Origin: a virus
Length of the DNA: 64,000 nt
Reading direction: 5' to 3' (one strand)
IMG/VR virus record: IMGVR_UViG_3300035232_000453
Part shown: positions 1,957 to 28,062 of the stretch, in pieces
How the letters are laid out: each line of letters begins with the position of its first letter
How positions within the stretch are numbered: the first letter of the stretch is position 1
Notes under the pieces: model-generated
What the model saw: the letters and a program-made list of their open reading frames with translations, nothing else
Told to the model about the DNA's origin: nothing
Databases searched by the model: none
Position numbers and translations under genes: made by a program

Positions 1957-4068
1957 TTATTTATTTTTTTCTGCTCGTTCTTGCTCTTTTTTTGCTTGAG
2001 CCATATATAATGTTTGCAAATCATATATATGTTTTTTCATATCTTCTATAGTTTTTTGTTGTTCTTTGATTGCTTCAATTAGTAATCCAGATATATTTCC
2101 GTATGCTACAGACTTCATTCCATCGGCATCAGTGTGAACTACTTCTGGGAAGAACTCTTCTATTTCTTGTGCAATAACACCAGTGCTATGTCTGCCGTCT
2201 TTTTCGAAATTAACACCTCGTAAACAATTAACTACGTCTACTGCATTAGTTATTGTTTCTACGTTTCTTTTCAACCTTTGATCTGAATAAGCAGTAACGT
2301 CACCAGTTGCAGTAAAGTCACCCGTGTAACTTCCACTCATTGTGAATTCTGTACCAGTTAATGTTAATCCATTACCTGCTGTATATGTTGTATTTGTATC
2401 TGTTGAAGATATAACATTAGAACCATCTATTGCTACATTTGTTCCAGCTGTGTATGTTGTGTTAGTATCAGTGTTTGTATCCGTGCTACTAATAGTAAAG
2501 TTAGGATAAGTTCCACTGATACTTGTAGCACCCGAACCTGTCAGACTTACAGTTTGATCTGGTGCAGTATTTTGAAACTCTGTTCCAACTAAGTTTAATC
2601 CTGTGCCTGCTGTATATGTTGTGTTTGTGTCAGTAAAAGATGTAATATATCCTGCACCGTTAGTTAACTGATTGTTATTAGTAGGTATTGTTGGCTTATT
2701 AGATAAGTCATTATAATTAATTGTTCCTACACTTGTTAAATATCCGCTATCATTTGTAAATGTGCTTACATTGGTTGGTATACGTGCATCTACTCTAGCA
2801 TTTGTATAATATAAATTTCCTGCTTCTGTAATATCGTCTGTATCTAATGCGCCTGTTCCGCCTGTTACTGCACTATCTACATATGCCTTGGTTGCGGCAT
2901 GATTTGCACTACTTGGTGCACCACTTAATGTAAGTGTGCCCGTCATTGTGTCGCCAGATTTAGAAACTTTTGTTCCTATTTGTGTGCTGAGTGTTGTGCT
3001 GAGATTTGCATCATCGCCAAGTGCTGCAGCTAATTCGTTTAATGTGTCTAGCGTTCCTGGTGCGCCATCAACTATTGCAGAAATTTCTGCATCGGTATAT
3101 GCGTTTGCAGTTGTTACTGCATCTGCTTCGGCTGTATCTGCATATGATTGTGCTGATGCCAGTGCTGCGTTTGCTTTAGAAGTTGCATCACTTGATGCAG
3201 TTGAAATTGCGTCTGCTTCGGCTGTGTCTGCATATGCTTTTGCATCCACTAGTGCTTGGTTAGCCTTAGTAGTTGCGTCTGTTGCCGCTGCATTAATTGC
3301 CGCTAATTGAGCCGCATTTGCTTTAGAAGTTGCGTCTGTTGCCGCTGCATTAATTGCCGCTAATTGAGCCGCATTTGCTTTAGAAGTTGCGTCTGTTGCC
3401 GCTGTACTAATTGCATCTGTTTCAGCGGTGTCTACATATGTTTCTGTAGCATAGCTCTTCGTTCCTAGTAGCGTGTTTACTTGTGCATCTGTGTAATATA
3501 AATTAGTACTACCTTCTGCTATATCATCTGTATCTAACACAACTGAACCAGTTGCTGAATTAACACTTACTACTGGTGCTGTGGTTGCAGAAAAACTAAT
3601 TACACCTGTTGTACTATTGTATGCTAAATCACCGCTTACACTAATAGCACTTCTAGATCGTGCATCCGTATAATATAAATTACTACCTTCTGACAAATCG
3701 CTAGTGTCTGCTGATGCTAGTTTCGAATCCCAACGTGCAGCAGTATAGTATAAATTTGTACCTTCGCTTAAATGTGTAGTTGTTTTGGAACTTAGATCTA
3801 AATTAGCACCTGTTTGTAAAGTTATACGTGCATCAACTAATGCATCATCATAAAATAGATTTGTTGTGCCTTCTGTTAAATTGTCTGTATTGATACTAAC
3901 CTCTACACCATCAGCAATATTTACGTTCTGTAATGTAATTGTTCCTCCGCTGTGTGTTAGAACATCGGTACCATTGATTTGCAATACATCAACATTACTA
4001 TTTGCCACAATTGGGGCAAGTGGATCTGCATCATGTATTACTGTTTTGTTTCCTATAATAAAAGCCAT
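1957..4068 (-). CDS. Tail fibre protein with C-terminal intramolecular chaperone (peptidase S74-like)
   Basis: TDxLxEGxxNLYYT repeats, GAPGTLDTLNELAAALGDD motif, C-terminal AYSDQRLKRNV...GVIAQEIE...LIEAIKEQ. Confidence 0.85.
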   Translation of the reverse strand: MAFIIGNKTVIHDADPLAPIVANSNVDVLQINGTDVLTHSGGTITLQNVNIADGVEVSINTDNLTEGTTNLFYDDALVDARITLQTGANLDLSSKTTTHLSEGTNLYYTAARWDSKLASADTSDLSEGSNLYYTDARSRSAISVSGDLAYNSTTGVISFSATTAPVVSVNSATGSVVLDTDDIAEGSTNLYYTDAQVNTLLGTKSYATETYVDTAETDAISTAATDATSKANAAQLAAINAAATDATSKANAAQLAAINAAATDATTKANQALVDAKAYADTAEADAISTASSDATSKANAALASAQSYADTAEADAVTTANAYTDAEISAIVDGAPGTLDTLNELAAALGDDANLSTTLSTQIGTKVSKSGDTMTGTLTLSGAPSSANHAATKAYVDSAVTGGTGALDTDDITEAGNLYYTNARVDARIPTNVSTFTNDSGYLTSVGTINYNDLSNKPTIPTNNNQLTNGAGYITSFTDTNTTYTAGTGLNLVGTEFQNTAPDQTVSLTGSGATSISGTYPNFTISSTDTNTDTNTTYTAGTNVAIDGSNVISSTDTNTTYTAGNGLTLTGTEFTMSGSYTGDFTATGDVTAYSDQRLKRNVETITNAVDVVNCLRGVNFEKDGRHSTGVIAQEIEEFFPEVVHTDADGMKSVAYGNISGLLIEAIKEQQKTIEDMKKHIYDLQTLYMAQAKKEQERAEKNK
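3271..3404. repeat. 57-bp in-frame tandem repeat (about 2.35 copies) in fibre gene
   Basis: Unit agttgcgtctgttgccgctgcattaattgccgctaattgagccgcatttgctttaga starts at 3271, 3328 and (partial) 3385. Confidence 0.9.
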
Positions 4069-4083
4069 TATCTACTCCATCTT

Positions 4084-4734
4084 TTATGTATTTATCACTT
4101 TAACTGCAAATACATTCCAACATGGATATTTTCCCCACTCGTTATGAGATTGTAATACAGTATCATCTAATATTTTGATATTCAAATAATCAAATTCATT
4201 CCATGTATGTTTTTCTACAGTAGGTGGTTGAAAATTGTATGGATTGTTTGGGAATTCTTCAATTTTACCAGGTTCTGGAATAAATTCTTCATCTATATTA
4301 TTATGCCCGCTTTGATTAATATATATTCCATTATCTTTAAGTACGGCACGTAGTTGTTGATGATAAAATAGTCTTTGTTGTTGTTTATTATCTACTGTAT
4401 GAATTGATGTACAAAACTGATGGAAATATCCAAAGTCAATTACAACATCATATGTATTGTTACTCCAATTTTGTTCTTCTAAATTCTTAAATTCAAATGT
4501 TACATTACTATGTTTTGCAGTTGCTTGTTTTATTGCTTCTTTAGAATTATCAATAGCATGAACATTAAAGCCTTGTTCTGCTAGATAAAATGCATTTCTT
4601 CCTATTCCACATCCAATGTCTAATATTGTTGCATTTTGTGGGAATTTACTTATACATTGTTTAAGGAATAATGCAGGTTCGTGTCCCCATGCAGGGTTGC
4701 CTTTTTTATATATACTATCAAATGAATAAGTCAA
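4084..4734 (-). CDS. Class I SAM-dependent methyltransferase (TehB-like)
   Basis: ILDIGCGIGRNAFYLAEQGFNVHAIDNS motif I; TTG start with AGGAG RBS. Confidence 0.85.
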   Translation of the reverse strand: MTYSFDSIYKKGNPAWGHEPALFLKQCISKFPQNATILDIGCGIGRNAFYLAEQGFNVHAIDNSKEAIKQATAKHSNVTFEFKNLEEQNWSNNTYDVVIDFGYFHQFCTSIHTVDNKQQQRLFYHQQLRAVLKDNGIYINQSGHNNIDEEFIPEPGKIEEFPNNPYNFQPPTVEKHTWNEFDYLNIKILDDTVLQSHNEWGKYPCWNVFAVKVINT

Positions 4735-4747
4735 TTAATGACTCCTA

Positions 4748-5908
4748 TTAGGGAGTAGACTGAAAAGTTGATGGTACAAATTGTACCCATGCTGTTCCGT
4801 CATATCCTTCAAACATACTTGTTCCTTCGTTAAAGAACATCATTCCTGCCACTGCTGGTGATGGACGATCTACTGTTAAGCCTTTTGGTAATCTAAATAC
4901 ATCAGGAGAAAGTGAGCCTGAGTTATCAATTACAACTTGTCCTTGCGAATTAATAATACCACCTTCGAGGTTACCTGTAACATTACCATCTACATTACCT
5001 ACAAGGTTACCTAAAACATCACCAACAACGCCGCCTTGTATGTTTGCGTAAACAATTGGTTTAGGTACGGCAGTATCATCAATAATAAGTGTAGAACCAG
5101 TTCTATCATAAACTGCACCGTTCCAATTACCAAAAGCAGTTGTTCCAGTAAAGTCTGCACTACCACCAGTAAATGTAGCAATGCCACTAATATTAGTAGT
5201 GCCTGCATTTAATGTTGTAGTGGTTGCTGAATCAACCGTTAAGGCAGAATCTAAATTTCCAGTTCCGCTTTCTAAAATTTTATTTGCACCAGTTGGGTTG
5301 TAAACATCACCATATGCATCGCCCACTAGTCCACCTGTAAATGTAGTAGTTGTGCTTGATACATCAACAATAACGTTTCCACTATTATCAACTACATCGC
5401 CACGATATGTTGCTGGTGTACTTGCATCTCCTGGGTTTAAAACAATTGATGTTGCGTCTGTTTCGTCTGCTAAGTTATAACCAACTTTAGTAGCATATGC
5501 AGAGTCTGTATCAGTAAAACTAATAACACCTGTTGCACTATCATAAGATAAACTACCAGTTGCTGATATGGCTGCTCTTGCATCTGCATCTGTATATTGT
5601 GTTGGTAAATTACCTGCAATAATTGTATCTGCAGTAATTGTTCCTACTGTAATACTACCTTTTACTATGCTTGCATCTAAGGCACTTACATCATTAATAG
5701 TAGAAGGTGATAATTGAATTGAATCAAGTAAAAGAAAGTTGTTTGTTTCACTATCTCTAACAAGACCTGCATATGTAGTTGGTCCTAGTTTTCCTAAAAA
5801 CCCAACATCTGTTGCTTGTAATCCATCTTTATTTAATATTAATAGTGGGTCAGAAAACCCAACATCTGTACTAATTATATTAGTAGTTTGTATTCCTCTA
5901 AATGCCAT
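4748..5908 (-). CDS. Virion structural/fibre-like protein
   Basis: G/T-rich beta repeats and C-terminal LPKGLTVDRPSPAVAGMMFFNEGTSMFEGYDGTAW motif common in phage structural proteins; late box GATAAATA at 5934-5941. Confidence 0.65.
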   Translation of the reverse strand: MAFRGIQTTNIISTDVGFSDPLLILNKDGLQATDVGFLGKLGPTTYAGLVRDSETNNFLLLDSIQLSPSTINDVSALDASIVKGSITVGTITADTIIAGNLPTQYTDADARAAISATGSLSYDSATGVISFTDTDSAYATKVGYNLADETDATSIVLNPGDASTPATYRGDVVDNSGNVIVDVSSTTTTFTGGLVGDAYGDVYNPTGANKILESGTGNLDSALTVDSATTTTLNAGTTNISGIATFTGGSADFTGTTAFGNWNGAVYDRTGSTLIIDDTAVPKPIVYANIQGGVVGDVLGNLVGNVDGNVTGNLEGGIINSQGQVVIDNSGSLSPDVFRLPKGLTVDRPSPAVAGMMFFNEGTSMFEGYDGTAWVQFVPSTFQSTP

Positions 5909-5965
5909 GATACAATTCCTTTAATTATAGTAGTATTTATCACAAACAAACTTTTACACGGCCAT

Positions 5966-6014: not shown

Positions 6015-8336
6015 TTACTTCTTTTTTAGTTCTTCTACTTGAGCTGATAATTCCTTAACTGCTTCAATTAGTAGACCTGTAATGTTTCCGTATGCTACTG
6101 AATGAACACCTTCTGCATCTGTATGTACTGCTTCAGGAAGTACTGCTTTAAGTTCCTGAGCGATAACACCTGTTGATACTGAACCGTCTTCAATTCTTTC
6201 AAATGTAACACCACGAATTGCTTCAACTCTACCTAATGCACCGTCAATAACTTGAACGTTAGTTTTTAAGCTATCATCTGAATAAGCAGTAATATCACCA
6301 GTTGCTGTAAAGCTACCAGTGTATGAACCACTCATTTTGAACTCTGTGCCACTTAACGTCATACCGTTACCTGCTGTGTAAGTAGTATTTGTATCAGTGT
6401 ATCCAGTAATATAACCAGCACCGTTAGTTAGCTGGTTGTTATTAGTTACATTTGTAGCGCCTGTGGCAATACCGTCTAACTTAGTCTTCAATGTAGAAGT
6501 AAAGTTTTTCTGAGTTAAGCCACCATCGCCTACTGAATACGTAGTATCCGAGTCTGCCGCTAATGCTGATGCCAATGCTGCGTTTGCTTTAGTAGTTGCA
6601 TCACCTGCCGCTGTAGAAATAGCTGCTGCCTGTGCCGCATTTGCTTTAGAAGTTGCATCTGTTGCCGCTGTAGAAATAGCGTCTGCCTCAGCTGCGTCTG
6701 CTTTAGTAGTTGCGTCTGTTGCCGCTGCACTAATTGCCGCTGCCTGTGCTGCATTTGCTTTAGAAGTTGCGTCTGCAGAAGCAGTAGAAGCCGCTGATGA
6801 AGTAACACTAGAGATTGCTGAACTTAGTTCTGCATCTGTTGCCATTGCATCTTGGATTTCTTTAAGCGTATCAAACGCTGCGCCTGCACCGTTAGTTACT
6901 GACGAAATAGCTGCTGCCTGAGCTGCATCTGCTTTAGCAGTTGCGTCTGCACTTGCAGTTGCTTCTGCTGCCGCCTGTGCCGCATTTGCTTTAGAAGTTG
7001 CATCTGCTGCCGCTGTACTAACTGCATCTGATTCTGCTGTATCAGCATAAGTTTGTGCTGATGCCAACGCTGCATTTGCTTTAGTAGTTGCGTCTGTTGC
7101 CGCTGCCGACTCTGCGTCTGCTTCGGCTTGGTCTGCATATGATTTAGCTGCTACCAATGCCGCATCTGCTTTAGAAGTTGCATCGCTTGCCGCTGTACTA
7201 ATTGCATCTGCTTCGGCTGTATCTGCATATGATTGTGCTGATGCCAGTGCTGCGTTTGCTTTAGAAGTTGCATCTGCTGCCGCTGCCGACTCTGCGTCTG
7301 CTTCGGCTTGGTCTGCATATGATTGATATGCAGTTGTAATTGCAGTTTCACGTGTATCAGTATATGCTTTAGCATCTACTTCAGCTGCATTTGCTTTAGA
7401 AGTTGCATCTGCACTTGCAGTTGCTGTAGCTGCCGATACTGCGTCTGCTTCAGCTGTATCTGCATAAGTTTGTAATGCTGATGTTTGAGCTGAATCTGCC
7501 GCTGCCCATGCTGTATTAATTGCAGTTTCACGTGTATCAGTATATGCTTTAGCGTCTGCTTCGGCTTGATCTGCATATGTGTTTGATGCAGTTACGTTAA
7601 GTGCCATTTGAGCATCTACATAAGCTTCGTTTGTTTTAGTGTTAATTGCAGTTAAGTTAGAAGCAATTGCAACTGTGTTAGTGGCAATGTCTGCTGCGTT
7701 TGTGGCAATATTTGTGTTTGCAGTAACAATATCTGCTGAGTTAGTTGCAATTGAGTTAGTTACTGTTGTACTAAAGTTTGCATCATCACCCATAGCATTA
7801 GCAAGTTCGTTTAGTGTATCCATCGCACCAGGGGCGCCATTTACTAAGTTTGAAATTGCACTATCTACATAGCTTTTGTTTGCTGCATCAGTACTAGCTA
7901 CTGCTGTACCAATGTTAGTGACTAAATTGTTGTTCATATCAATTTTGTCACCGAAAGAAACGGCGTTTCCTGCCGAATCAGTAATGTTATTTCCGGTCGC
8001 GATTTGAAGCGTACCGTTTACGTTGACTGTAGTTGCTGACTGAAGTGCTAAAACACCTGTACCAGTTGTTTTAACTGTTAAGCCTTGGTCTTCATCTGCA
8101 CTAACAACAATTGTTCCAGAATCATCTTGTAGAACTTTTTGGTTGTTAATGAATAACGAACCTTCTGATAGATATAAGTCTCTCCACTTTGCAGTAGTTG
8201 AACCTAAGTCAAAACCAGTAGAACCGTTTGAATCTACGTTAGGTAGAATGTGTCCACCCATAGTTAGATTTGCTAATAATTCAGAAGCATCATCAGTTTT
8301 AAAACCACCGTCAATTATAAATTTTCTTTGTGCCAT
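6015..8336 (-). CDS. Tail fibre protein with Ala-rich coiled-coil repeats and C-terminal S74-like chaperone
   Basis: Start reassigned to MAQRKF (AAGGAG RBS); DATSKANAA repeats; AYSDDSLKTNV...GVIAQEL...LIEAVKEL. Confidence 0.85.
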   Translation of the reverse strand: MAQRKFIIDGGFKTDDASELLANLTMGGHILPNVDSNGSTGFDLGSTTAKWRDLYLSEGSLFINNQKVLQDDSGTIVVSADEDQGLTVKTTGTGVLALQSATTVNVNGTLQIATGNNITDSAGNAVSFGDKIDMNNNLVTNIGTAVASTDAANKSYVDSAISNLVNGAPGAMDTLNELANAMGDDANFSTTVTNSIATNSADIVTANTNIATNAADIATNTVAIASNLTAINTKTNEAYVDAQMALNVTASNTYADQAEADAKAYTDTRETAINTAWAAADSAQTSALQTYADTAEADAVSAATATASADATSKANAAEVDAKAYTDTRETAITTAYQSYADQAEADAESAAAADATSKANAALASAQSYADTAEADAISTAASDATSKADAALVAAKSYADQAEADAESAAATDATTKANAALASAQTYADTAESDAVSTAAADATSKANAAQAAAEATASADATAKADAAQAAAISSVTNGAGAAFDTLKEIQDAMATDAELSSAISSVTSSAASTASADATSKANAAQAAAISAAATDATTKADAAEADAISTAATDATSKANAAQAAAISTAAGDATTKANAALASALAADSDTTYSVGDGGLTQKNFTSTLKTKLDGIATGATNVTNNNQLTNGAGYITGYTDTNTTYTAGNGMTLSGTEFKMSGSYTGSFTATGDITAYSDDSLKTNVQVIDGALGRVEAIRGVTFERIEDGSVSTGVIAQELKAVLPEAVHTDAEGVHSVAYGNITGLLIEAVKELSAQVEELKKK

Positions 8337-12418: not shown

Positions 12419-14002
12419 CTAGATTGGGAAATATCTGAAGTCAACTGTTGAACTTGTTGACGGTGCATTTGTGATTGTTAATGTTGATCCACTAATGCTA
12501 TACTCTGTTGGTTGTAGAATTAAACCATCTACAATAACTAACATACTGTGAACGCTGTGTCCGCTCTGAATAGTATATTGTGTTGTAGTGTTATCTCCCA
12601 CATATTGACTACTAGTATATATCAAATTTAAGTGCTGGTTTCCTACAGAGTTATTTAATAAATTTACATTAGTTGCACTTGGATATCTATACTTGACATA
12701 TATTTCATCACCACTTGCAGGAATTTCATTAAATGATAGTGTTGTTCCATTTAGTGAATAAATGCTAGGACGTTGTAAAACATCATTTACGTATACGTCA
12801 ATTGATTCTTCATCTGCTGGTGCATCTGTTAATGTGTACGATGTTAATGATCCGTTTCCTGTAAATACTTGAGAAGCAGGTAACGGATTGGATGTAATAC
12901 TGTTGTTTGTAAAAGAAAAATTTCCATTACCATCTGTTTGTAATACTTGTCCACTTGTACCATCGCTAATACCTAAGTCAAGTATTCCACTTACGTCACT
13001 AGCAATTGTTATACCTTTAGAACCAGTAGTAGTAACCGGAGTAATTGTAATATTATTACCAGCACGTATTGATATTTCATCAACCGCTGCCGCTATAATA
13101 TCAGTTGGTGTTGTATCACTAACTGTATCATAAATGTGCCACGTTTTAAATGTGGATTCAATTGTAACTGTTACTGTACCGTCTGCGTTATCAGTTAATG
13201 CAAAACCGCCGTCAACATTGAAGTTAATACCTGTTACATTTGCTACTTCTACGTTTGATACTGGGTCGTTAATTTCCTTAACTGAGAGCGCCAAATCGCT
13301 TCGTATAGAGGTGTTTATGTTTGCAAGCTCTGTTGATGTTGCAAAGGCACTATCTGCTGACTGGAAGCTATTTACAATTTCTGTAAGAGAGTCTAGTGCT
13401 GCAGGATCTGTATTTGACAGTATGTTATTAACTTGCGTTTGTAATGCAGTAATATCAGCAGTAATACTAGATGATACTACTCCTCTGTTACCAGAGTATG
13501 TTGCACCTGTAATATAAACACTTTTGCCAGAAAAATTAACACCATTTGGTAAGTTATCACCAATAAAGTTTAGTACACCTGATTGATAATCAAAGAACCA
13601 TTCATCGTTATTACCACTACCAGTAGTAAAGACTTTGTTGGACATTGTTTCAGCACCAGCGGCATCACCACTAGTATGAACATAAACATTTACAAGATAT
13701 GTTGAACCAAATTCTGTTGGAATCCAATCTGTGATTCCTGTTTTCCAAGTTCTATTGCCTGTTGCAGTAATATCTTCGGTTGCTTCAATTGCCGTTTGTA
13801 GTGTTACATAACTATTAGAAGCAGAAGGCTTTACTGCTGGAATACTTCCAGACTCTGCCCAAATCGTATCACCACGTATTAGTAATGGACTTGGTAAACT
13901 TTCGTTGGCTGCAAGTTTGTTAAAGACTGTATCAGTTTTAGTTGCACCAAAACCAACTTTCTTAAATAGATAGTCTAACTTTTGATTATCGGAAATTGCC
14001 AT
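12419..14002 (-). CDS. Virion structural protein
   Basis: WFFDYQSGVLNF motif, NTDPAALDSLTEIV motif, two C-terminal GNGSxTxYTL...VYVNDVLQ beta domains. Confidence 0.7.
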   Translation of the reverse strand: MAISDNQKLDYLFKKVGFGATKTDTVFNKLAANESLPSPLLIRGDTIWAESGSIPAVKPSASNSYVTLQTAIEATEDITATGNRTWKTGITDWIPTEFGSTYLVNVYVHTSGDAAGAETMSNKVFTTGSGNNDEWFFDYQSGVLNFIGDNLPNGVNFSGKSVYITGATYSGNRGVVSSSITADITALQTQVNNILSNTDPAALDSLTEIVNSFQSADSAFATSTELANINTSIRSDLALSVKEINDPVSNVEVANVTGINFNVDGGFALTDNADGTVTVTIESTFKTWHIYDTVSDTTPTDIIAAAVDEISIRAGNNITITPVTTTGSKGITIASDVSGILDLGISDGTSGQVLQTDGNGNFSFTNNSITSNPLPASQVFTGNGSLTSYTLTDAPADEESIDVYVNDVLQRPSIYSLNGTTLSFNEIPASGDEIYVKYRYPSATNVNLLNNSVGNQHLNLIYTSSQYVGDNTTTQYTIQSGHSVHSMLVIVDGLILQPTEYSISGSTLTITNAPSTSSTVDFRYFPI

Positions 14003-17000
14003 TAACTAGCCTCCCCAATTGATATACTAGTTATTTCTTTTCCACTTGCTAATGCTACTCTAACCAACACAACATTATTTGTTGCGTTACTCATATTTTC
14101 ACTACCTAGTGTCATTGTATAACTTGAATTGATACTGGAACCTGTTGGAACAACATCAGCACCTGTTAACGCACAACCATCTGCACCGTTACCGCCATTA
14201 GCAGTATCGCTACCCGGTATACCAGCACCTGCGTACTGACTTGTACATTCAATCCATCCATTTAATCCACTAGCATTATCTACGCCAGTTCCAGGAGCTG
14301 CAATCCACATACCAGCTATTCCGTTTGAAGTAATGTTAATATCAAAATTAGCAACAACTTGTCTGCGGAAAGCAAAAGTAAAATACTGTGTTCCAGTATC
14401 TGCACTTCTGTCTGGTCCAACTGGTAAAAATCCTGTTGAATAGTCTGTAGTATTATGTTCTAATGTACCCCATCTTACAGTAGCTTCTTGTGTTCCACTT
14501 ACACTTACTGCACCAGTAAATGGTGTAGCAGTATAATCTGTTGAACCTGTTATAGTTGGTGTATCAGTTGTAGCATTTACAAAATCTGCAATACGCAAAC
14601 CGTCTTCAGTAATTGTTCCATTACCTAAGCTATTTGCTACTGGTATATTGTCTTCTATAACACCTGTAGGATTAGCAGTATGCACCTGTACAGCGGTGTT
14701 AGTTAGTTCTGCATAGTTTGAGCTACCATTTACATTATTCGCTTTAAATTTAAGCGTTTCGACTGCTTTAACACTACTTGTAGTAATGTTAATTGTTTGG
14801 TCTGCTAATGCATATGATGAACCAAATCCAGTATTAGCATTTGGTATACCTGCTGTTAAATACGAAACTGCTTCCAGGTTTGCATATCCTTTATACTGTG
14901 TACTAATGGTTGCACCACTTGTACTTTCTGAATTAGTACCGTTAGCAATTTCAAATACATTGTTTGTATCTCTATATGCTTGACCAATCCAGTCAGAAAG
15001 TGATGCACCACTAAGTGTGAGGGTAGGGCTTCCTGTGTTGTAGTATGGAATTCCAGATATGTATCTGTAACTACCTGCGGTGCTTTCTGTCAAAGTAGCA
15101 CTTGTTAAGTCAATAGTAGGAACGCTAGTTAAGTCATCACAAATAACTGTCACGTAGTTAGTATTGCCTGTTGCATTATGCTCTATTCTTTGATCATTAA
15201 CACCAGTTGAATATTCAGCAAATGGTTTAGTAATTTTTGCATCAAATGTTTGGAAAAATCCAGTAGGATAAGTTGAAGAACTTATACTGTCATTTGCATC
15301 TCTTTGATCACTAATTACCAAGCTGTCAAAAGTACCGTTTTCATTTAAGGAAGTAGTAAACGCTTTTGAACCATCTGCTGAACCGTTAACAATTGCAGTT
15401 GCAGTACCACTTAAACCATTATATACATTTTGTGCAATGCTGGTGTCAATAGTACCGTTAGTATATCGTCTTTCGGTATTTGTTTTTAAACTTGCTCCAG
15501 CCGAGACTGGTGATGTTGCACTATTATCAGTAAAGTTATTAGCTAGTTTAGGATCAATACCCTGTGCGGAATCAGTAAGTGTAATTGTTTTTGTACTTAA
15601 TCCGCCTGGTGCGTTTGGCACTGCATTAACTTGAAAAGTTAAGCTGGCCGAATCTGTTTGAGCTGTTATATCTGGAGTACCTGTTGCGGTAAAATCTAAT
15701 TGATAGTTACCCGGTGTTACTCCTGTAAAGTCGTGTTGGACACTTGTTAGTCCTGCTTCATTATTATTAGCACTACCATCGTTCCAATCGTATTCATGAT
15801 TGTCACCATTTTCACTTGTGTTGTTTACAGTAACTAATGCTCTGTTTACGCCGGTATAATCTACGCCGTCATATACATCATATTGATTATCGCCGTTGCG
15901 ATCTGAAACTGTATCTGCACTACCCAAGATGTTTGCTCTAACATCTGGTTCTACGTGAATTACAAAATCTATACTTTCAAAAGGACTGCTAGTATGATCG
16001 CTTAAAACTTGCAAATTACCTGTGTAGTCCATTGCTACACTATTATCTAATAAAGTGTATTTGTGTGTTATTGTTCTAGCAGTATCTCCACTTTGATTAC
16101 TGCCTACATTTACAGTTGTAATTGTACCATCGCCAAAGTCCCATAGATAACGTGTTCCGTATGTACTATAGCTTCCTATAGTTGCTTCAGTGCCATTAGT
16201 AAATGTTACTGTTAATCCGTTATTTGATTCTTCGTTAATACCTGTTGTAATGTCTGATGTTGCATCTGGTGTATGTGTGTCATAAATTTTATAACTTGCA
16301 TCATCATCTAATGGAAGTAATGATGGCGTAGCTGTGCTATGACTGTCTAATGTTAGTGTAACGGTTCTTTGCACTTCTTGTTGTGTGCTAAGAGCAAATG
16401 TGTGGGCTATACGTCCTCCGCCTACGCCACCTGCTACACTATCTAAGTTAATAACATCATCTGCGGAACCATCTGCCCAATCCCATGTGTATTGAATTAC
16501 TGCTCCCGATGTGTTAGTTGTTGTATTTTCAAAATAGACAGTATCGCCATCATCCCAATGTGTAATTGCGTTGCCACCAGTTGGTGCATCGTATACTACA
16601 AATGAAACGGCTGGATCGCCTGTGAAGATTGTAATATAATCTTCTCTTAATTTTTGTACTGAGCTACCAGCGCCTGTTCCTGTGTTATTAAATGCTGTAA
16701 CATTTACATCAAAGGGACTACCAGTGTTGGTTGCGTATGTGTGAGTTGGAGTTGAGTCTGTTGTTGCGGTTGTTTGAGTGCCATCGCCCCAATCAATTGT
16801 ATATCTGTTTGGGTCGCCAACAGTACTGATGGTTAATGTTGCAGTTAGTCCTGCTCCACCTGTTACTATATCAGAAACAAAATCTACAGACTTAACATAA
16901 GCACCTATTCTTATGTTTTCAATAATTTCTAAAACAGTAGCAGTATCGGCATCGCCGCCTGCATCAACATTTGATATTGCTGTTTCTAAAAATACTTTTG

Positions 17001-17145
17001 TTACAAGGTCTTGCGGGTCAACTGGGTCTGATGCGTTTTTTACAATTTTAGCGGAAACATCAATATTGTTTGCCGCTCCTGCATCTAGTATTAGATCAGA
17101 TTCAGATTTAATTTTATCTGCCTGATGATTTATGTTTATAGCCAA
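14002..17145 (-). CDS. Virion protein with multiple PKD/Ig-like domains
   Basis: Repeated YxWDW/FGDG...xHTY motifs; TTG start; late-like box GTTAAATA at 17198-17205. Confidence 0.75.
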   Translation of the reverse strand: MAININHQADKIKSESDLILDAGAANNIDVSAKIVKNASDPVDPQDLVTKVFLETAISNVDAGGDADTATVLEIIENIRIGAYVKSVDFVSDIVTGGAGLTATLTISTVGDPNRYTIDWGDGTQTTATTDSTPTHTYATNTGSPFDVNVTAFNNTGTGAGSSVQKLREDYITIFTGDPAVSFVVYDAPTGGNAITHWDDGDTVYFENTTTNTSGAVIQYTWDWADGSADDVINLDSVAGGVGGGRIAHTFALSTQQEVQRTVTLTLDSHSTATPSLLPLDDDASYKIYDTHTPDATSDITTGINEESNNGLTVTFTNGTEATIGSYSTYGTRYLWDFGDGTITTVNVGSNQSGDTARTITHKYTLLDNSVAMDYTGNLQVLSDHTSSPFESIDFVIHVEPDVRANILGSADTVSDRNGDNQYDVYDGVDYTGVNRALVTVNNTSENGDNHEYDWNDGSANNNEAGLTSVQHDFTGVTPGNYQLDFTATGTPDITAQTDSASLTFQVNAVPNAPGGLSTKTITLTDSAQGIDPKLANNFTDNSATSPVSAGASLKTNTERRYTNGTIDTSIAQNVYNGLSGTATAIVNGSADGSKAFTTSLNENGTFDSLVISDQRDANDSISSSTYPTGFFQTFDAKITKPFAEYSTGVNDQRIEHNATGNTNYVTVICDDLTSVPTIDLTSATLTESTAGSYRYISGIPYYNTGSPTLTLSGASLSDWIGQAYRDTNNVFEIANGTNSESTSGATISTQYKGYANLEAVSYLTAGIPNANTGFGSSYALADQTINITTSSVKAVETLKFKANNVNGSSNYAELTNTAVQVHTANPTGVIEDNIPVANSLGNGTITEDGLRIADFVNATTDTPTITGSTDYTATPFTGAVSVSGTQEATVRWGTLEHNTTDYSTGFLPVGPDRSADTGTQYFTFAFRRQVVANFDINITSNGIAGMWIAAPGTGVDNASGLNGWIECTSQYAGAGIPGSDTANGGNGADGCALTGADVVPTGSSINSSYTMTLGSENMSNATNNVVLVRVALASGKEITSISIGEAS

Positions 17146-17221: not shown

Positions 17222-17830
17222 TTAATTTACGCTAGGGTTTCCATATAAGGAAAGAATAGCCCAACCAGACTCAGTAAAAATAAATTCTGCACACTGACCA
17301 ATGGTTACAAATGATATGTCTGTTCCATTTAAGAACGTGTCTGGTGTGACAACAATTGTACTACTTGGAGTATCAGTTACTACTAAAATTTTTCTTTCAC
17401 CTTCAATGCCATCTGCTAATGTTAGTGCAGTGCTAGTTGATGCATTTAGATAAACTGTGCCAGATGTTGATAAGGATACAGAGTTTGTAGCTGATGTTTT
17501 AACTGATACTACTTTTTGTAAAAATGCAATATCCCAAGGACTACTATTTGTTCCTAGATCATATTGTATTCCAGAATCAGTATTTGGTACAACATTACTG
17601 TTTACGTTTGCATTCAGCGTTAATGATCCTCCTGCGTTTCCTAATGATATAACGTTTCCGTTTACAACAAGAGTACCGCCGACATATAAATTGTCTAATA
17701 TGCCTGCTCCGCCTCTTACGCAAAGAGCAGATGTTGTTGATGCTAAATTCAAATCAGCAGCATTAACGTCTAATACGTTAGTGCTTTCTATTACTAGTGT
17801 TCCAGAATCTGGGTTAATGTGTGATGACAT
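17222..17830 (-). CDS. Virion structural protein
   Basis: ALCVRGGAGILDNLYVGG beta repeat and LTLADGIEGERKILV motif; late box GATAAATA at 17868-17875. Confidence 0.6.
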   Translation of the reverse strand: MSSHINPDSGTLVIESTNVLDVNAADLNLASTTSALCVRGGAGILDNLYVGGTLVVNGNVISLGNAGGSLTLNANVNSNVVPNTDSGIQYDLGTNSSPWDIAFLQKVVSVKTSATNSVSLSTSGTVYLNASTSTALTLADGIEGERKILVVTDTPSSTIVVTPDTFLNGTDISFVTIGQCAEFIFTESGWAILSLYGNPSVN

Positions 17831-17903
17831 AATACTTTCTTCCTACTACTTCCTTTTATTATATATGTATTTATCAAAGACAAACCTTTTTGGCTGCTCA
17901 AAG

Positions 17904-17927
17904 AAAAAGACGCCAAAGCGTCTTTTT
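17904..17927 (-). terminator. Rho-independent terminator (bidirectional-looking) ending the candidate ncRNA
   Basis: AAAAAGACGC-TTTG-GCGTCTTTTT. Confidence 0.85.
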
Positions 17928-18146
17928 AGAATAAGCAAAATAGGTAGGATTCGGTTATACCTACAACCCCATAACACAGATACCATCTGAAATAAGGGAG
18001 CCAAGTTCCGCTTAGTATTGCGATGTGACACAGCGTATTTCTACTACCACGCCTGGGTACTACCCCTAACTTGCCAAGTTCGACCCTCTGGTAAAGGCCT
18101 CTTCCTTGCACTATAAACATTGAGCCGCTAAACTCTTTGTTGCTAT
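17904..18146 (-). ncRNA. Stand-alone structured RNA, about 240 nt (possibly manA-motif-like, unverified)
   Basis: Own promoter and terminator, GC-richer than flanks, several hairpins by eye (GAGUU/GGCUC, GGCCUUU/GAGGGUC, GGGU/ACCC, GCGU/ACGC, CAGAU/AUCUG, GUAGG/CCUAC); no credible ORF. Confidence 0.7.
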
Positions 18147-18152
18147 GTACTT

Positions 18153-18181
18153 AATATACAACATATTTGTACAAAGGTCAA
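18153..18181 (-). promoter_or_regulatory. sigma70-type promoter TTGACC-N17-TATATT
   Basis: -35 at 18181-18176, -10 at 18158-18153, immediately after the capsid-gene terminator. Confidence 0.7.
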
Positions 18182-18222
18182 CCTTTATTTAATAAAAAAT
18201 TAATCTTTTTTAAAAATAAGCC

Positions 18223-18253
18223 AAAAAAATAGGCCCAATAAAGGGCCTATTTT
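18223..18253 (-). terminator. Rho-independent terminator of the capsid operon
   Basis: AAAATAGGCCC-N6-GGGCCTATTTT plus T-run. Confidence 0.85.
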
Positions 18254-18275
18254 AGTATTACTTGTTAAGTTCGGT

Positions 18276-19439
18276 TTATGAGAACTTAAGGTTACCTGAT
18301 GCAACGTCAATTTTCGCTAAGTAGTCAGCTGCATTACCAAGAGATGAAGCTTGGTTGTTTAGCTCAACATAGCCATAACGTGTCATAAATGATACTGTTG
18401 GCTCGAAAGTTGATGGATCAAGTACTGTGCCTGAAGACATTAATGGAATGTATGGGCAATAGAATGCTGCCGCATCAATTTCACCGTCGCCTTTATAGCC
18501 AACTAGTACTGGAGCATTATCTGCCGCGTACTGGTCAACGAAAACACGCATAGTATTATTCAAAGTACCAACAAATTTAGTGTTAGTTGGAGCTTCAAAT
18601 GGACCTTCAGTTGTTCTTGCAAACGCTGAAGTTGTCGCACTTTGTAGTACTGTTAACATTGTTGGTGAAACAACAACGTAGTTACCTGCGCCACGACGTG
18701 TACGTGTAGCGATTAGGTTTGCAGATCTGTTAATAAGAACCGCTAGTGCAGCATGCTCGTCACCGACGAAAGTTGCTTGTCCTGAAACAGCGCCTTGGTC
18801 GTATGTGTCTGCAGCTGTACCTGCTAATGTACGTAGTGAAGTTAAAACTTCTTGATCGATTTCAGCAGTAATTTCTTGTGCAAGTGCTTGCATGATTTCT
18901 GCTTCAACGTCTAGACCGTGCATTGAATTAGCATCTTGTGCCGCTTCAAAAGTCCAACGTGCTGATAGTTTACGTGTTTTAGCTTCAACAGTTTGTTTCA
19001 ATACTTGGATTGAAAGTTTACGACCTGCTTCTGCTTCTAAAGAAGAAGTTGAAGTCGCTTTACCTGTTGCTGCGTCACCTGAGTAACCTTTTGCAATTGC
19101 AAATGGGCTTAGTGCTTCGTCGCCTGCTGTTGCAGTTGCGGCTGTTTCACCATATCTTACTCTTAGTGTGTGAATTTGTCCTACTGGACCTGTCATAGGT
19201 TGTACACCTACTAGTTCGTTCGCGATAACTGTTGGCATTACACGACGAATAACTGGAAGAATCACTTTGTTAAGTGATGCAACGTTACCTGCCATTGTTG
19301 TACCAGCTGCGGCTGATTCTGAAAGATAGCTCTTAGTGTTTTCTAGAACTGACTCCATAACAACCTTTTTGTTACCTGATAAACCATCTGTTAGTGCGTC
19401 TTTAGTTACGCCCCAATTTTCAAATAGATTCTGTGTCAT
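18276..19439 (-). CDS. gp23: Major capsid protein (T4 gp23 family)
   Basis: VGVQPMTGPVGQIHTLR, KTRKLSARWTFEAAQD, FYCPYIPL, FMTRYG motifs. Confidence 0.95.
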   Translation of the reverse strand: MTQNLFENWGVTKDALTDGLSGNKKVVMESVLENTKSYLSESAAAGTTMAGNVASLNKVILPVIRRVMPTVIANELVGVQPMTGPVGQIHTLRVRYGETAATATAGDEALSPFAIAKGYSGDAATGKATSTSSLEAEAGRKLSIQVLKQTVEAKTRKLSARWTFEAAQDANSMHGLDVEAEIMQALAQEITAEIDQEVLTSLRTLAGTAADTYDQGAVSGQATFVGDEHAALAVLINRSANLIATRTRRGAGNYVVVSPTMLTVLQSATTSAFARTTEGPFEAPTNTKFVGTLNNTMRVFVDQYAADNAPVLVGYKGDGEIDAAAFYCPYIPLMSSGTVLDPSTFEPTVSFMTRYGYVELNNQASSLGNAADYLAKIDVASGNLKFS

Positions 19440-24014: not shown

Positions 24015-24063
24015 AATGTATGCCTTTTATTGTATTTGTATTTATCTATTTACTTATTAACGT

Positions 24064-28030: not shown

Positions 28031-28062
28031 GATAAATACTATTGTATTATACAGTATTTATG
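28031..28062. promoter_or_regulatory. Opposed late-promoter boxes for the divergent gp26 and tape-measure genes
   Basis: GATAAATA on + at 28031-28038 and CATAAATA on - at 28062-28055. Confidence 0.65.

Follow-up and report, generated by a model that had tools for sequence, protein, structure and literature searches.

The manA RNA motif was described in 2010 as a probable riboswitch residing in 5′ UTRs (Weinberg et al. 2010, PMC2864571), and this view was repeated later (PMC9964418), the motif having been carried ever since as a probable riboswitch without a ligand. In the literature on manA function, we found nothing beyond that description, and nothing experimental until July 2026, when an unreviewed preprint reported that five manA RNAs assemble in vitro into RNA-only particles based on pentamers, that is, octamers, decamers, or a T = 1 cage of 60 subunits (Ren et al., 10.64898/2026.07.01.735769). 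According to the cryo-EM analysis therein, A0F1 forms the 60-mer and pho34, pho_A28C, and 67AA form decamers; one set of assemblies is held together by the kissing loops L5-L7′ and L8-L9′, and the other set by L6-P6′ (a GNRA loop-receptor contact), L5-L7′, and L3-L8′. The particles were obtained in vitro in 10 mM Mg2+ after heating, and the preprint still refers to manA as a putative 5′-UTR element (10.64898/2026.07.01.735769). ROOL, GOLLD, and OLE are likewise ornate RNAs borne by phages or bacteria that form protein-free multimers, some of them near tRNA genes (PMC12286853), but they are 2–4 times longer than the RNA described here and unrelated to it in sequence and fold; Rfam scans of the 64,000-nt viral sequence that we analysed (IMG/VR record IMGVR_UViG_3300035232_000453, hereafter designated the window) gave no match to any of the three.

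The classic form of manA is carried by cyanomyoviruses, as in the T4-like Prochlorococcus phage P-SSM2 (181.6 bits), where the RNA is preceded within a few bases by a TTGACA-N17-TATAAT promoter in the same arrangement as in the window. The window RNA shares with the P-SSM2 RNA the same helices, junction, and pseudoknot over 192 positions, the same conserved core letters, and the same complementary L5/L7 and L8/L9 loops. It differs in having an AU-rich pseudoknot (AUAG/CUAU, as against GGGAG/CUCCC in the classic form) and an added helix, P0, that closes its ends, in having on its 3′ side a hairpin terminator and then a late promoter apart from it, where P-SSM2 has a start codon 15 nt away, and in being carried by a giant phage. 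In Pelagibacter phage Mosig EXVC030M (MT647606, 108164–108371), the RNA has the same promoter type and a P0 helix formed by AAUGC/GCAUU, and ends 20 nt before the start codon of a rubrerythrin gene without a terminator, unlike the window RNA; this stretch is not annotated in MT647606. Mosig also carries, approximately 3 kb from manA, a permuted tmRNA of alphaproteobacterial type (L001, 592–930; RF04321, 93.6 bits), which is annotated as SsrA.

The RNA described here is not a new class; both the manA family and its fold, already solved, are known (10.64898/2026.07.01.735769). What the locus adds is an insertion polymorphism at a hotspot next to the capsid gene, inverted and tRNA-fused forms of the cassette, the P0 helix, covariation of the loops that form the cage contacts, and a branch of the family below the Rfam cut-off. 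Together with about 20 syntenic relatives, it provides genomic evidence that manA is an independent gene throughout a large clade of phages that abound in the ocean, and the question moves from what manA senses to the job that a manA particle may do in the infected cell.

Results

Organization of the locus

The window comes from a giant phage of the sea that has not been cultured and whose T4-type capsid belongs to the PA5oct/Rak2-like group. Its gp23-type major capsid protein is 67–70% identical to those of jumbo or giant phages (PA5oct, Vibrio phage 2.275.O, Sinorhizobium phage Phosso, and Rak2-like phages), and a megablast search with 10 kb around the locus gave no match among 50,697 phage records. 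The genes in this part of the window all lie on the minus strand, and the capsid gene is separated from the following gene, which codes for 202 residues, by a gap of 445 nt that holds a promoter, the RNA, two terminators, and a late-promoter motif (Table 1). The original prediction had read the gap as a capsid terminator, a sigma70 promoter, a GC-richer multi-hairpin RNA with its own terminator, and the next late promoter, and this order, with the 202-aa gene after it, stands on the minus strand. The interval that it delimited, 17904–18181, runs exactly from the end of the terminator to the −35 box, and the GC content there is indeed higher, being 0.43–0.48 compared with about 0.29–0.33 in the flanks.

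Table 1 Features of the manA locus and related elements (window coordinates unless a contig is named)
Feature	Position	Strand	Remarks
manA-family RNA body	17931–18146	−	From the predicted start, A at ~18146, to the end of the closing helix P0
sigma70-type promoter of the RNA gene	18153–18181	−	−35 TTGACC 18181–18176; N17; −10 TATATT 18158–18153; 10 of 12 positions match
Intrinsic terminator of the RNA gene	17904–17927	−	A5-GACGC-UUUG-GCGUC-U5
P0, 5′ strand AUAGCAA	18140–18146	−	Pairs with UUGCUUAU 17938–17931; closes the RNA end to end
Pseudoknot, 5′ strand AUAG	18111–18114	−	Pairs with CUAU 17943–17940
Loop L5 UAGUA	18058–18062	−	Complementary to L7 UACUA 18017–18013; five Watson-Crick pairs
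Loop L8 UGGU	17982–17985	−	Complementary to L9 ACCG 17955–17952
T4-type late-promoter-like motif GATAAATAC of the next gene	17867–17875	−	7 copies in the window; 1.1 expected
GATAAATAC, copies in the window	4088–4096, 5933–5941, 17867–17875, 24038–24046, 28031–28039, 35230–35238, 35390–35398
Major capsid protein gene, gp23 type (upstream neighbour)	18276–19439	−	phrog_138, E 3.4e-100; Pfam Gp23, E 2.4e-100
Intrinsic terminator of the capsid gene	18226–18253	−	11-bp hairpin, then T-run; same element in L004
Downstream gene, 202 aa	17222–17830	−	No PHROG or Pfam match
PKD-domain protein gene, 1047 aa (after the 202-aa gene)	14002–17145	−
freshwater-2 copies in relatives	L043:4702–4784, L032:4540–4623, L042:4700–4784, L045:5230–5313, L029:3450–3533, L058:4702–4772

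In Vibrio phage 2.275.O and Phosso, which have the closest cultured jumbo-phage capsids, only about 100–120 nt lie after the capsid genes, and RF01745, the Rfam model of manA, is absent throughout the records of both phages and of cyanophage Syn9. The C-terminal third of the 202-aa protein is 40% identical over 63 aa (E 5e-5) to a hypothetical protein of Pelagibacter phage HTVC008M; this match, together with the presence of the nearest DNA relative of the RNA in a Pelagibacter phage, hints weakly at a gene pool or a host in common with SAR11 phages.

Assignment of the RNA to the manA family

In E-value mode, the RNA matched RF01745 over the whole model (positions 1–192) with 50.2 bits and an E-value of 7.6e-12, whereas a scan of the whole window at the gathering threshold, which is 55.2 bits for this family, gave no match. 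The likeness to manA, proposed at the outset with an Rfam scan as its check, was recovered by that scan, though below the gathering cut-off, and was confirmed by homologues above it: direct homologues of the RNA scored 61.9 (L004), 57.8 (L006), 56.4 (L039), 64 (Mosig), and 79.9 bits (L058) against RF01745, and the RNA matched that of L004 in an nhmmer comparison with an E-value of 5.5e-68. On the basis of this homology to syntenic relatives scoring above the cut-off, we accept the RNA as a divergent manA RNA. Routine annotation misses it because its score lies under the cut-off, and the Rfam cut-off misses this branch of the family. A covariance model of our own (R1), constructed from an alignment of nine homologues, gave the window RNA 214 bits and found exactly one copy in the window and 25 copies over 82 sources. 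At the DNA level, the sole match among the 50,697 phage records was that in Mosig, with 73% identity over about 230 nt.

Promoter, terminator, and transcripts

Taken by itself, the match to a sigma70-type promoter is not significant, 4 promoter-like sites having been found in comparison with 7.2 expected. The predicted promoter is borne out by its conservation: the arrangement TTGACx-N16-17-TAtAtT (N14 in L014) lies directly upstream of manA in all 22 homologues, including Mosig, and a conserved start, CAUAAG, follows 6–7 nt past the −10 box in the 22 homologues. At the other end, a hairpin with a U-run is located 4–14 nt after manA in 18 of the 19 capsid-linked homologues as detected by a scan, and in the remaining one, L014, by eye, so that the terminator assigned to the RNA in the window has equivalents in its relatives; the stem sequences are unrelated between homologues. 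A standard terminator scan missed the terminator of the window RNA, probably by counting the A5/U5 extension as part of the stem, and a dedicated scan found it.

The late promoter of T4 has the element TATAAATA, which GATAAATAC resembles. For six of the seven copies of GATAAATAC in the window, an ORF on the same strand starts 20–65 nt downstream, and the copy that follows the manA terminator, standing where the next late promoter had been predicted, is kept in the relatives. Thus, GATAAATAC is probably the late-promoter core of this phage clade.

In a search with the 801 bases at 17700–18500, six seawater metatranscriptome runs matched at least half of the words sampled. Contigs from four of these runs cover the RNA, which is a weak indication of its transcription, and the capsid gene is covered at far higher depth. 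Being contigs, these data show the presence of the locus sequence in RNA libraries and say nothing of where transcripts end or how abundant they are. In an RNA run, a single contig (X16), derived from a variant strain, joins manA to the 3′ end of the capsid gene, which may reflect read-through or DNA carry-over. No contig covers the promoter and spacer (18164–18271) in three of the four runs, such holes not delimiting transcripts, and contig depth over manA differs from that over the flanks, a quantity that does not rank transcripts. No joints within manA were reported among the metatranscriptome contigs, which gives no sign of circular or permuted forms.

Covariation of the fold

The folding energy of the single sequence is unremarkable in comparison with shuffled sequences (z −0.59), and the evidence for structure is therefore covariation and not stability. 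In a model-free MAFFT alignment of nine homologues, compensatory changes were found at 27 of 42 pairs. When 24 distinct homologues were aligned with R1, 97.4% of the cells were paired, as against 35–48% with the partners slid by 1–3 columns, and 36 of the 42 pairs showed double changes, none of 500 shuffles reaching the observed values; an alignment of homologues, recommended at the outset as a check on the fold, thus revealed strong covariation. All of the consensus helices of RF01745 are present and kept by compensatory change. The pseudoknot occurs in the relatives as GGGU/ACCC, UAUUAG/CUAAUA, GAGUAG/CUACUC, and GAUAG/CUAUC, and the observed complementarity was reached in 0 of 2000 permutations, relatedness being uncorrected. 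P0, a helix outside the Rfam model, also covaries (AUAAGU/ACUUAU, AAUGC/GCAUU, and AUAAGCAA/UUGCUUAU), and 5 of 2000 permutations, again uncorrected for relatedness, reached the observed value.

The original prediction had noted that GAACUUGGC occurs twice and had supposed that CCAGG could pair with either CUUGG as a pseudoknot or a switch. The repeat is real (18081–18073 and 18008–18000), its copies forming the 3′ strands of two helices, CAAG/CUUG and CAAGUU/AACUUG, which vary independently in L032 and L045. The supposed pairing did not hold: CCAGG consists of the end of helix P5 and the start of P6, and the letters concerned belong to helices P5/P6, P2, and P4, whose covariation is independent, for which reason we rejected it; the true pseudoknot is that formed by AUAG and CUAU (Table 1).

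The same alignments bear on the reading of the tract as a small protein gene with frames of 61 or 64 aa (17846–18031 and 17926–18120). Both frames exist, and L004 has a frame of 63 aa at the same place; however, across the 24 homologues the longest open frame is found on different strands and in different frames, the substitutions track base pairs and not codons, and the indel lengths are not multiples of three. Codon-level conservation of these frames, which had been named in advance as evidence against an RNA gene, was not seen, no reading frame being conserved in this set. We rejected the coding reading, whose probability we regard as negligible.

An autonomous cassette at an insertion hotspot

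As relatives, we used 80 IMG/VR contigs whose capsid proteins are 72–93% identical to that of the window. About a third of them have a homologue of the window RNA just downstream of the capsid gene, and the cassette is present in 21 of the 59 capsid-linked loci having at least 600 nt downstream. In L007, L009, L012, and L013, the site is empty, the capsid terminator being followed by the late promoter and a fibre-like gene; in L007 and L009, homologues of the 202-aa gene directly follow the capsid gene. The cassette is inverted as a whole in L047, where it is convergent with the capsid gene and faces its 3′ end, and in L030, manA runs straight into tRNA-Gly, which is followed by the terminator. 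What comes after the cassette varies. It may be a protein gene (the fibre-like gene of 202 aa, a gene that begins MGRPLNK and has freshwater-2 in its leader, or an MPSFR gene), but also a tRNA or the antisense 3′ end of the capsid gene, and no protein gene consistently accompanies the cassette.

Phage morons are inserts consisting of a promoter, a gene, and a terminator that lie between late genes, as in lambdoid phages. The manA cassette likewise has its own promoter and terminator, occupies one site between two late genes at which some close relatives carry it and others lack it, and is tolerated in either orientation, but its cargo is a structured RNA and not a protein gene. The Rfam type of RF01745, Cis-reg, places the RNA in a 5′ UTR; in the window, its own terminator and the late-promoter motif intervene between the RNA and the next gene. 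Collectively, the promoter, RNA, and terminator behave as an autonomous RNA gene, similar to a moron, rather than as a leader, and the insulated, self-contained RNA gene that had been predicted is upheld by the conserved promoter and terminator, the variable presence, the inversion in L047, and the fusion with tRNA-Gly in L030.

Alternatively, the cassette might be a riboswitch or attenuator, in which the sensing of a ligand by manA decides between a stop at the terminator and read-through into the 202-aa gene, implying early, condition-dependent expression of this gene besides its late expression. manA is indeed catalogued as a cis-regulatory riboswitch candidate (PMC2864571), the succession of promoter, aptamer, terminator, and gene is the classic layout of such elements, and true glutamine riboswitch aptamers occur in the same intergenic island of the relatives. 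Moreover, manA adjoins a start codon, at a distance of 15–20 nt and without a hairpin terminator, in Mosig and P-SSM2, so that a leader role exists or coexists elsewhere in the family. In the cassettes, however, the terminator lies outside the conserved RNA, 4–14 nt beyond it, and pairing of the 5′ arm of the terminator with the RNA was no better than that of shuffled arms (mean z −0.33), the best partners being scattered along the RNA, which gives no conserved antiterminator. The downstream genes belong to no consistent class, are unrelated among the relatives, and have their own late promoter; the cassette of L047 is aimed at the 3′ end of the capsid gene, and in L030 a tRNA stands between manA and the terminator. 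No ligand has emerged although 16 years have passed since the description of the motif, and manA is not mentioned in a review of orphan riboswitches (PMC7266159). We therefore consider control of the 202-aa gene by ligand sensing distinctly unlikely.

Complementary loops and predicted self-assembly

The loops were numbered by helix order, with L6 taken as the GNRA loop of the relatives, and under this numbering the two complementary pairs of the window RNA, L5/L7 and L8/L9, match the kissing-loop contacts L5-L7′ and L8-L9′ of the preprint. Both loop pairs that hold the A0F1 pentamer together are thus present in the window RNA. In the relatives, L5/L7 varies as UGGUA/UACCA, UGGU/ACCA, and UAGU/ACUA, and L8/L9 as AGGAU/AUCCU, AUGAU/AUCAU, GAGA/UCUC, CUGAU/AUCAG, and GUGG/UCAC. 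The complementarity between cognate loops was reached in 47 of 2000 permutations for L5/L7 and in 3 of 2000 for L8/L9, as against 423 and 1391 of 2000 in the controls, relatedness being ignored; covariation of this kind does not separate contacts between molecules from those within one. None of the loops is palindromic, that is, self-complementary, as ring formation from head to tail would require. Given the complementarity and covariation of the loops and the behaviour of other manA RNAs in vitro (10.64898/2026.07.01.735769), we infer that the window RNA may oligomerize through L5/L7 and L8/L9.

We favour, as reasonably probable, the reading in which manA is here a free-standing gene for an early RNA made by the host enzyme, protected at its ends, with copies linked by their loops into closed, trans-acting particles. 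From the onset of infection, transcription by the host polymerase and sigma70 would start at approximately 18146 and stop at the terminator near 17900, yielding an RNA of approximately 245 nt. This RNA would fold, as the covariation indicates, into the manA core with its multi-helix junction and pseudoknot, with P0 pairing both ends, and P0 and the terminator hairpin would shield the ends of the RNA. The downstream gene would escape control by the RNA, which would be a free product and, presumably, trans-acting. Through L5/L7 and L8/L9, copies would then be joined head to tail into pentamer-based closed oligomers, as are other manA RNAs in vitro. As to function, our guess is an RNA scaffold or decoy, stable and abundant, whose production would begin with the infection itself.

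Another reading keeps the RNA monomeric, as a compact, end-paired molecule by which a protein of the host or the phage is sequestered or recruited, or as a processed stable RNA, the oligomers being a by-product of the conditions in vitro. Stable small RNAs typically have their 5′ and 3′ ends paired, as by P0 here, and carry a terminator hairpin, the conserved single-stranded nucleotides of the core could form a protein site, and the co-transcription with a tRNA in L030 is in line with such a molecule. Two covarying pairs of complementary loops nevertheless fit RNA-RNA contacts better than a protein site, and the cassette lacks a constant companion among protein genes. A monomeric decoy or processed RNA is, in our estimation, rather unlikely compared with the loop-joined particle favoured above.

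That manA RNAs form cages inside infected cells as a working part of the infection cycle is a more far-reaching proposition, which we regard as very doubtful at present. If it were true, the cage could serve as an RNA compartment, as a decoy for host RNA-binding factors of defence or decay, or in head assembly, possibly as a packaged particle, and the recurrent place of the gene directly after the major capsid gene of giant marine phages would be functional rather than a convenience of the insertion site.

Other cargo of the capsid-downstream site

Relatives carry other inserts at the site occupied by the cassette. L005 has a sigma70-promoter-driven gene for a secreted or periplasmic-looking protein (4250–4340), L002 a gene for a 251-aa protein with an N-terminus that resembles metallophosphoesterases by eye (4249–5004), and L003 a gene for a membrane protein behind a structured leader (1401–2360). 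This variety of cargo after the capsid gene points to an insertion hotspot.

In L004, the closest relative, a glutamine riboswitch aptamer (RF01739, 47 bits) comes after the capsid terminator, along with a mini-ORF of 28 codons that ends with TGA within the −35 box from which manA is expressed (2935–3090). The window retains no more than the final ~35 nt of this mini-ORF, at 18182–18225, and the module was accordingly either lost in the window or gained by L004. Glutamine aptamers also lie between the capsid gene and manA in L058, L043, L042, L045, and L032. Another catalogued RNA, the freshwater-2 motif (RF02980, 54–77 bits), is absent from the window and is located in relatives directly after GATAAATAC, in the leader of the conserved MGRPLNK gene (Table 1). 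With the glutamine aptamer, manA, and freshwater-2, the gap downstream of the capsid gene forms an island of up to three catalogued RNAs. In L002, the contig of which has no manA, a tRNA-Trp with two glutamine riboswitch aptamers in tandem behind it (66 and 61 bits) is found at 6018–6233, approximately 2 kb past a capsid gene whose product is 93% identical to that of the window.
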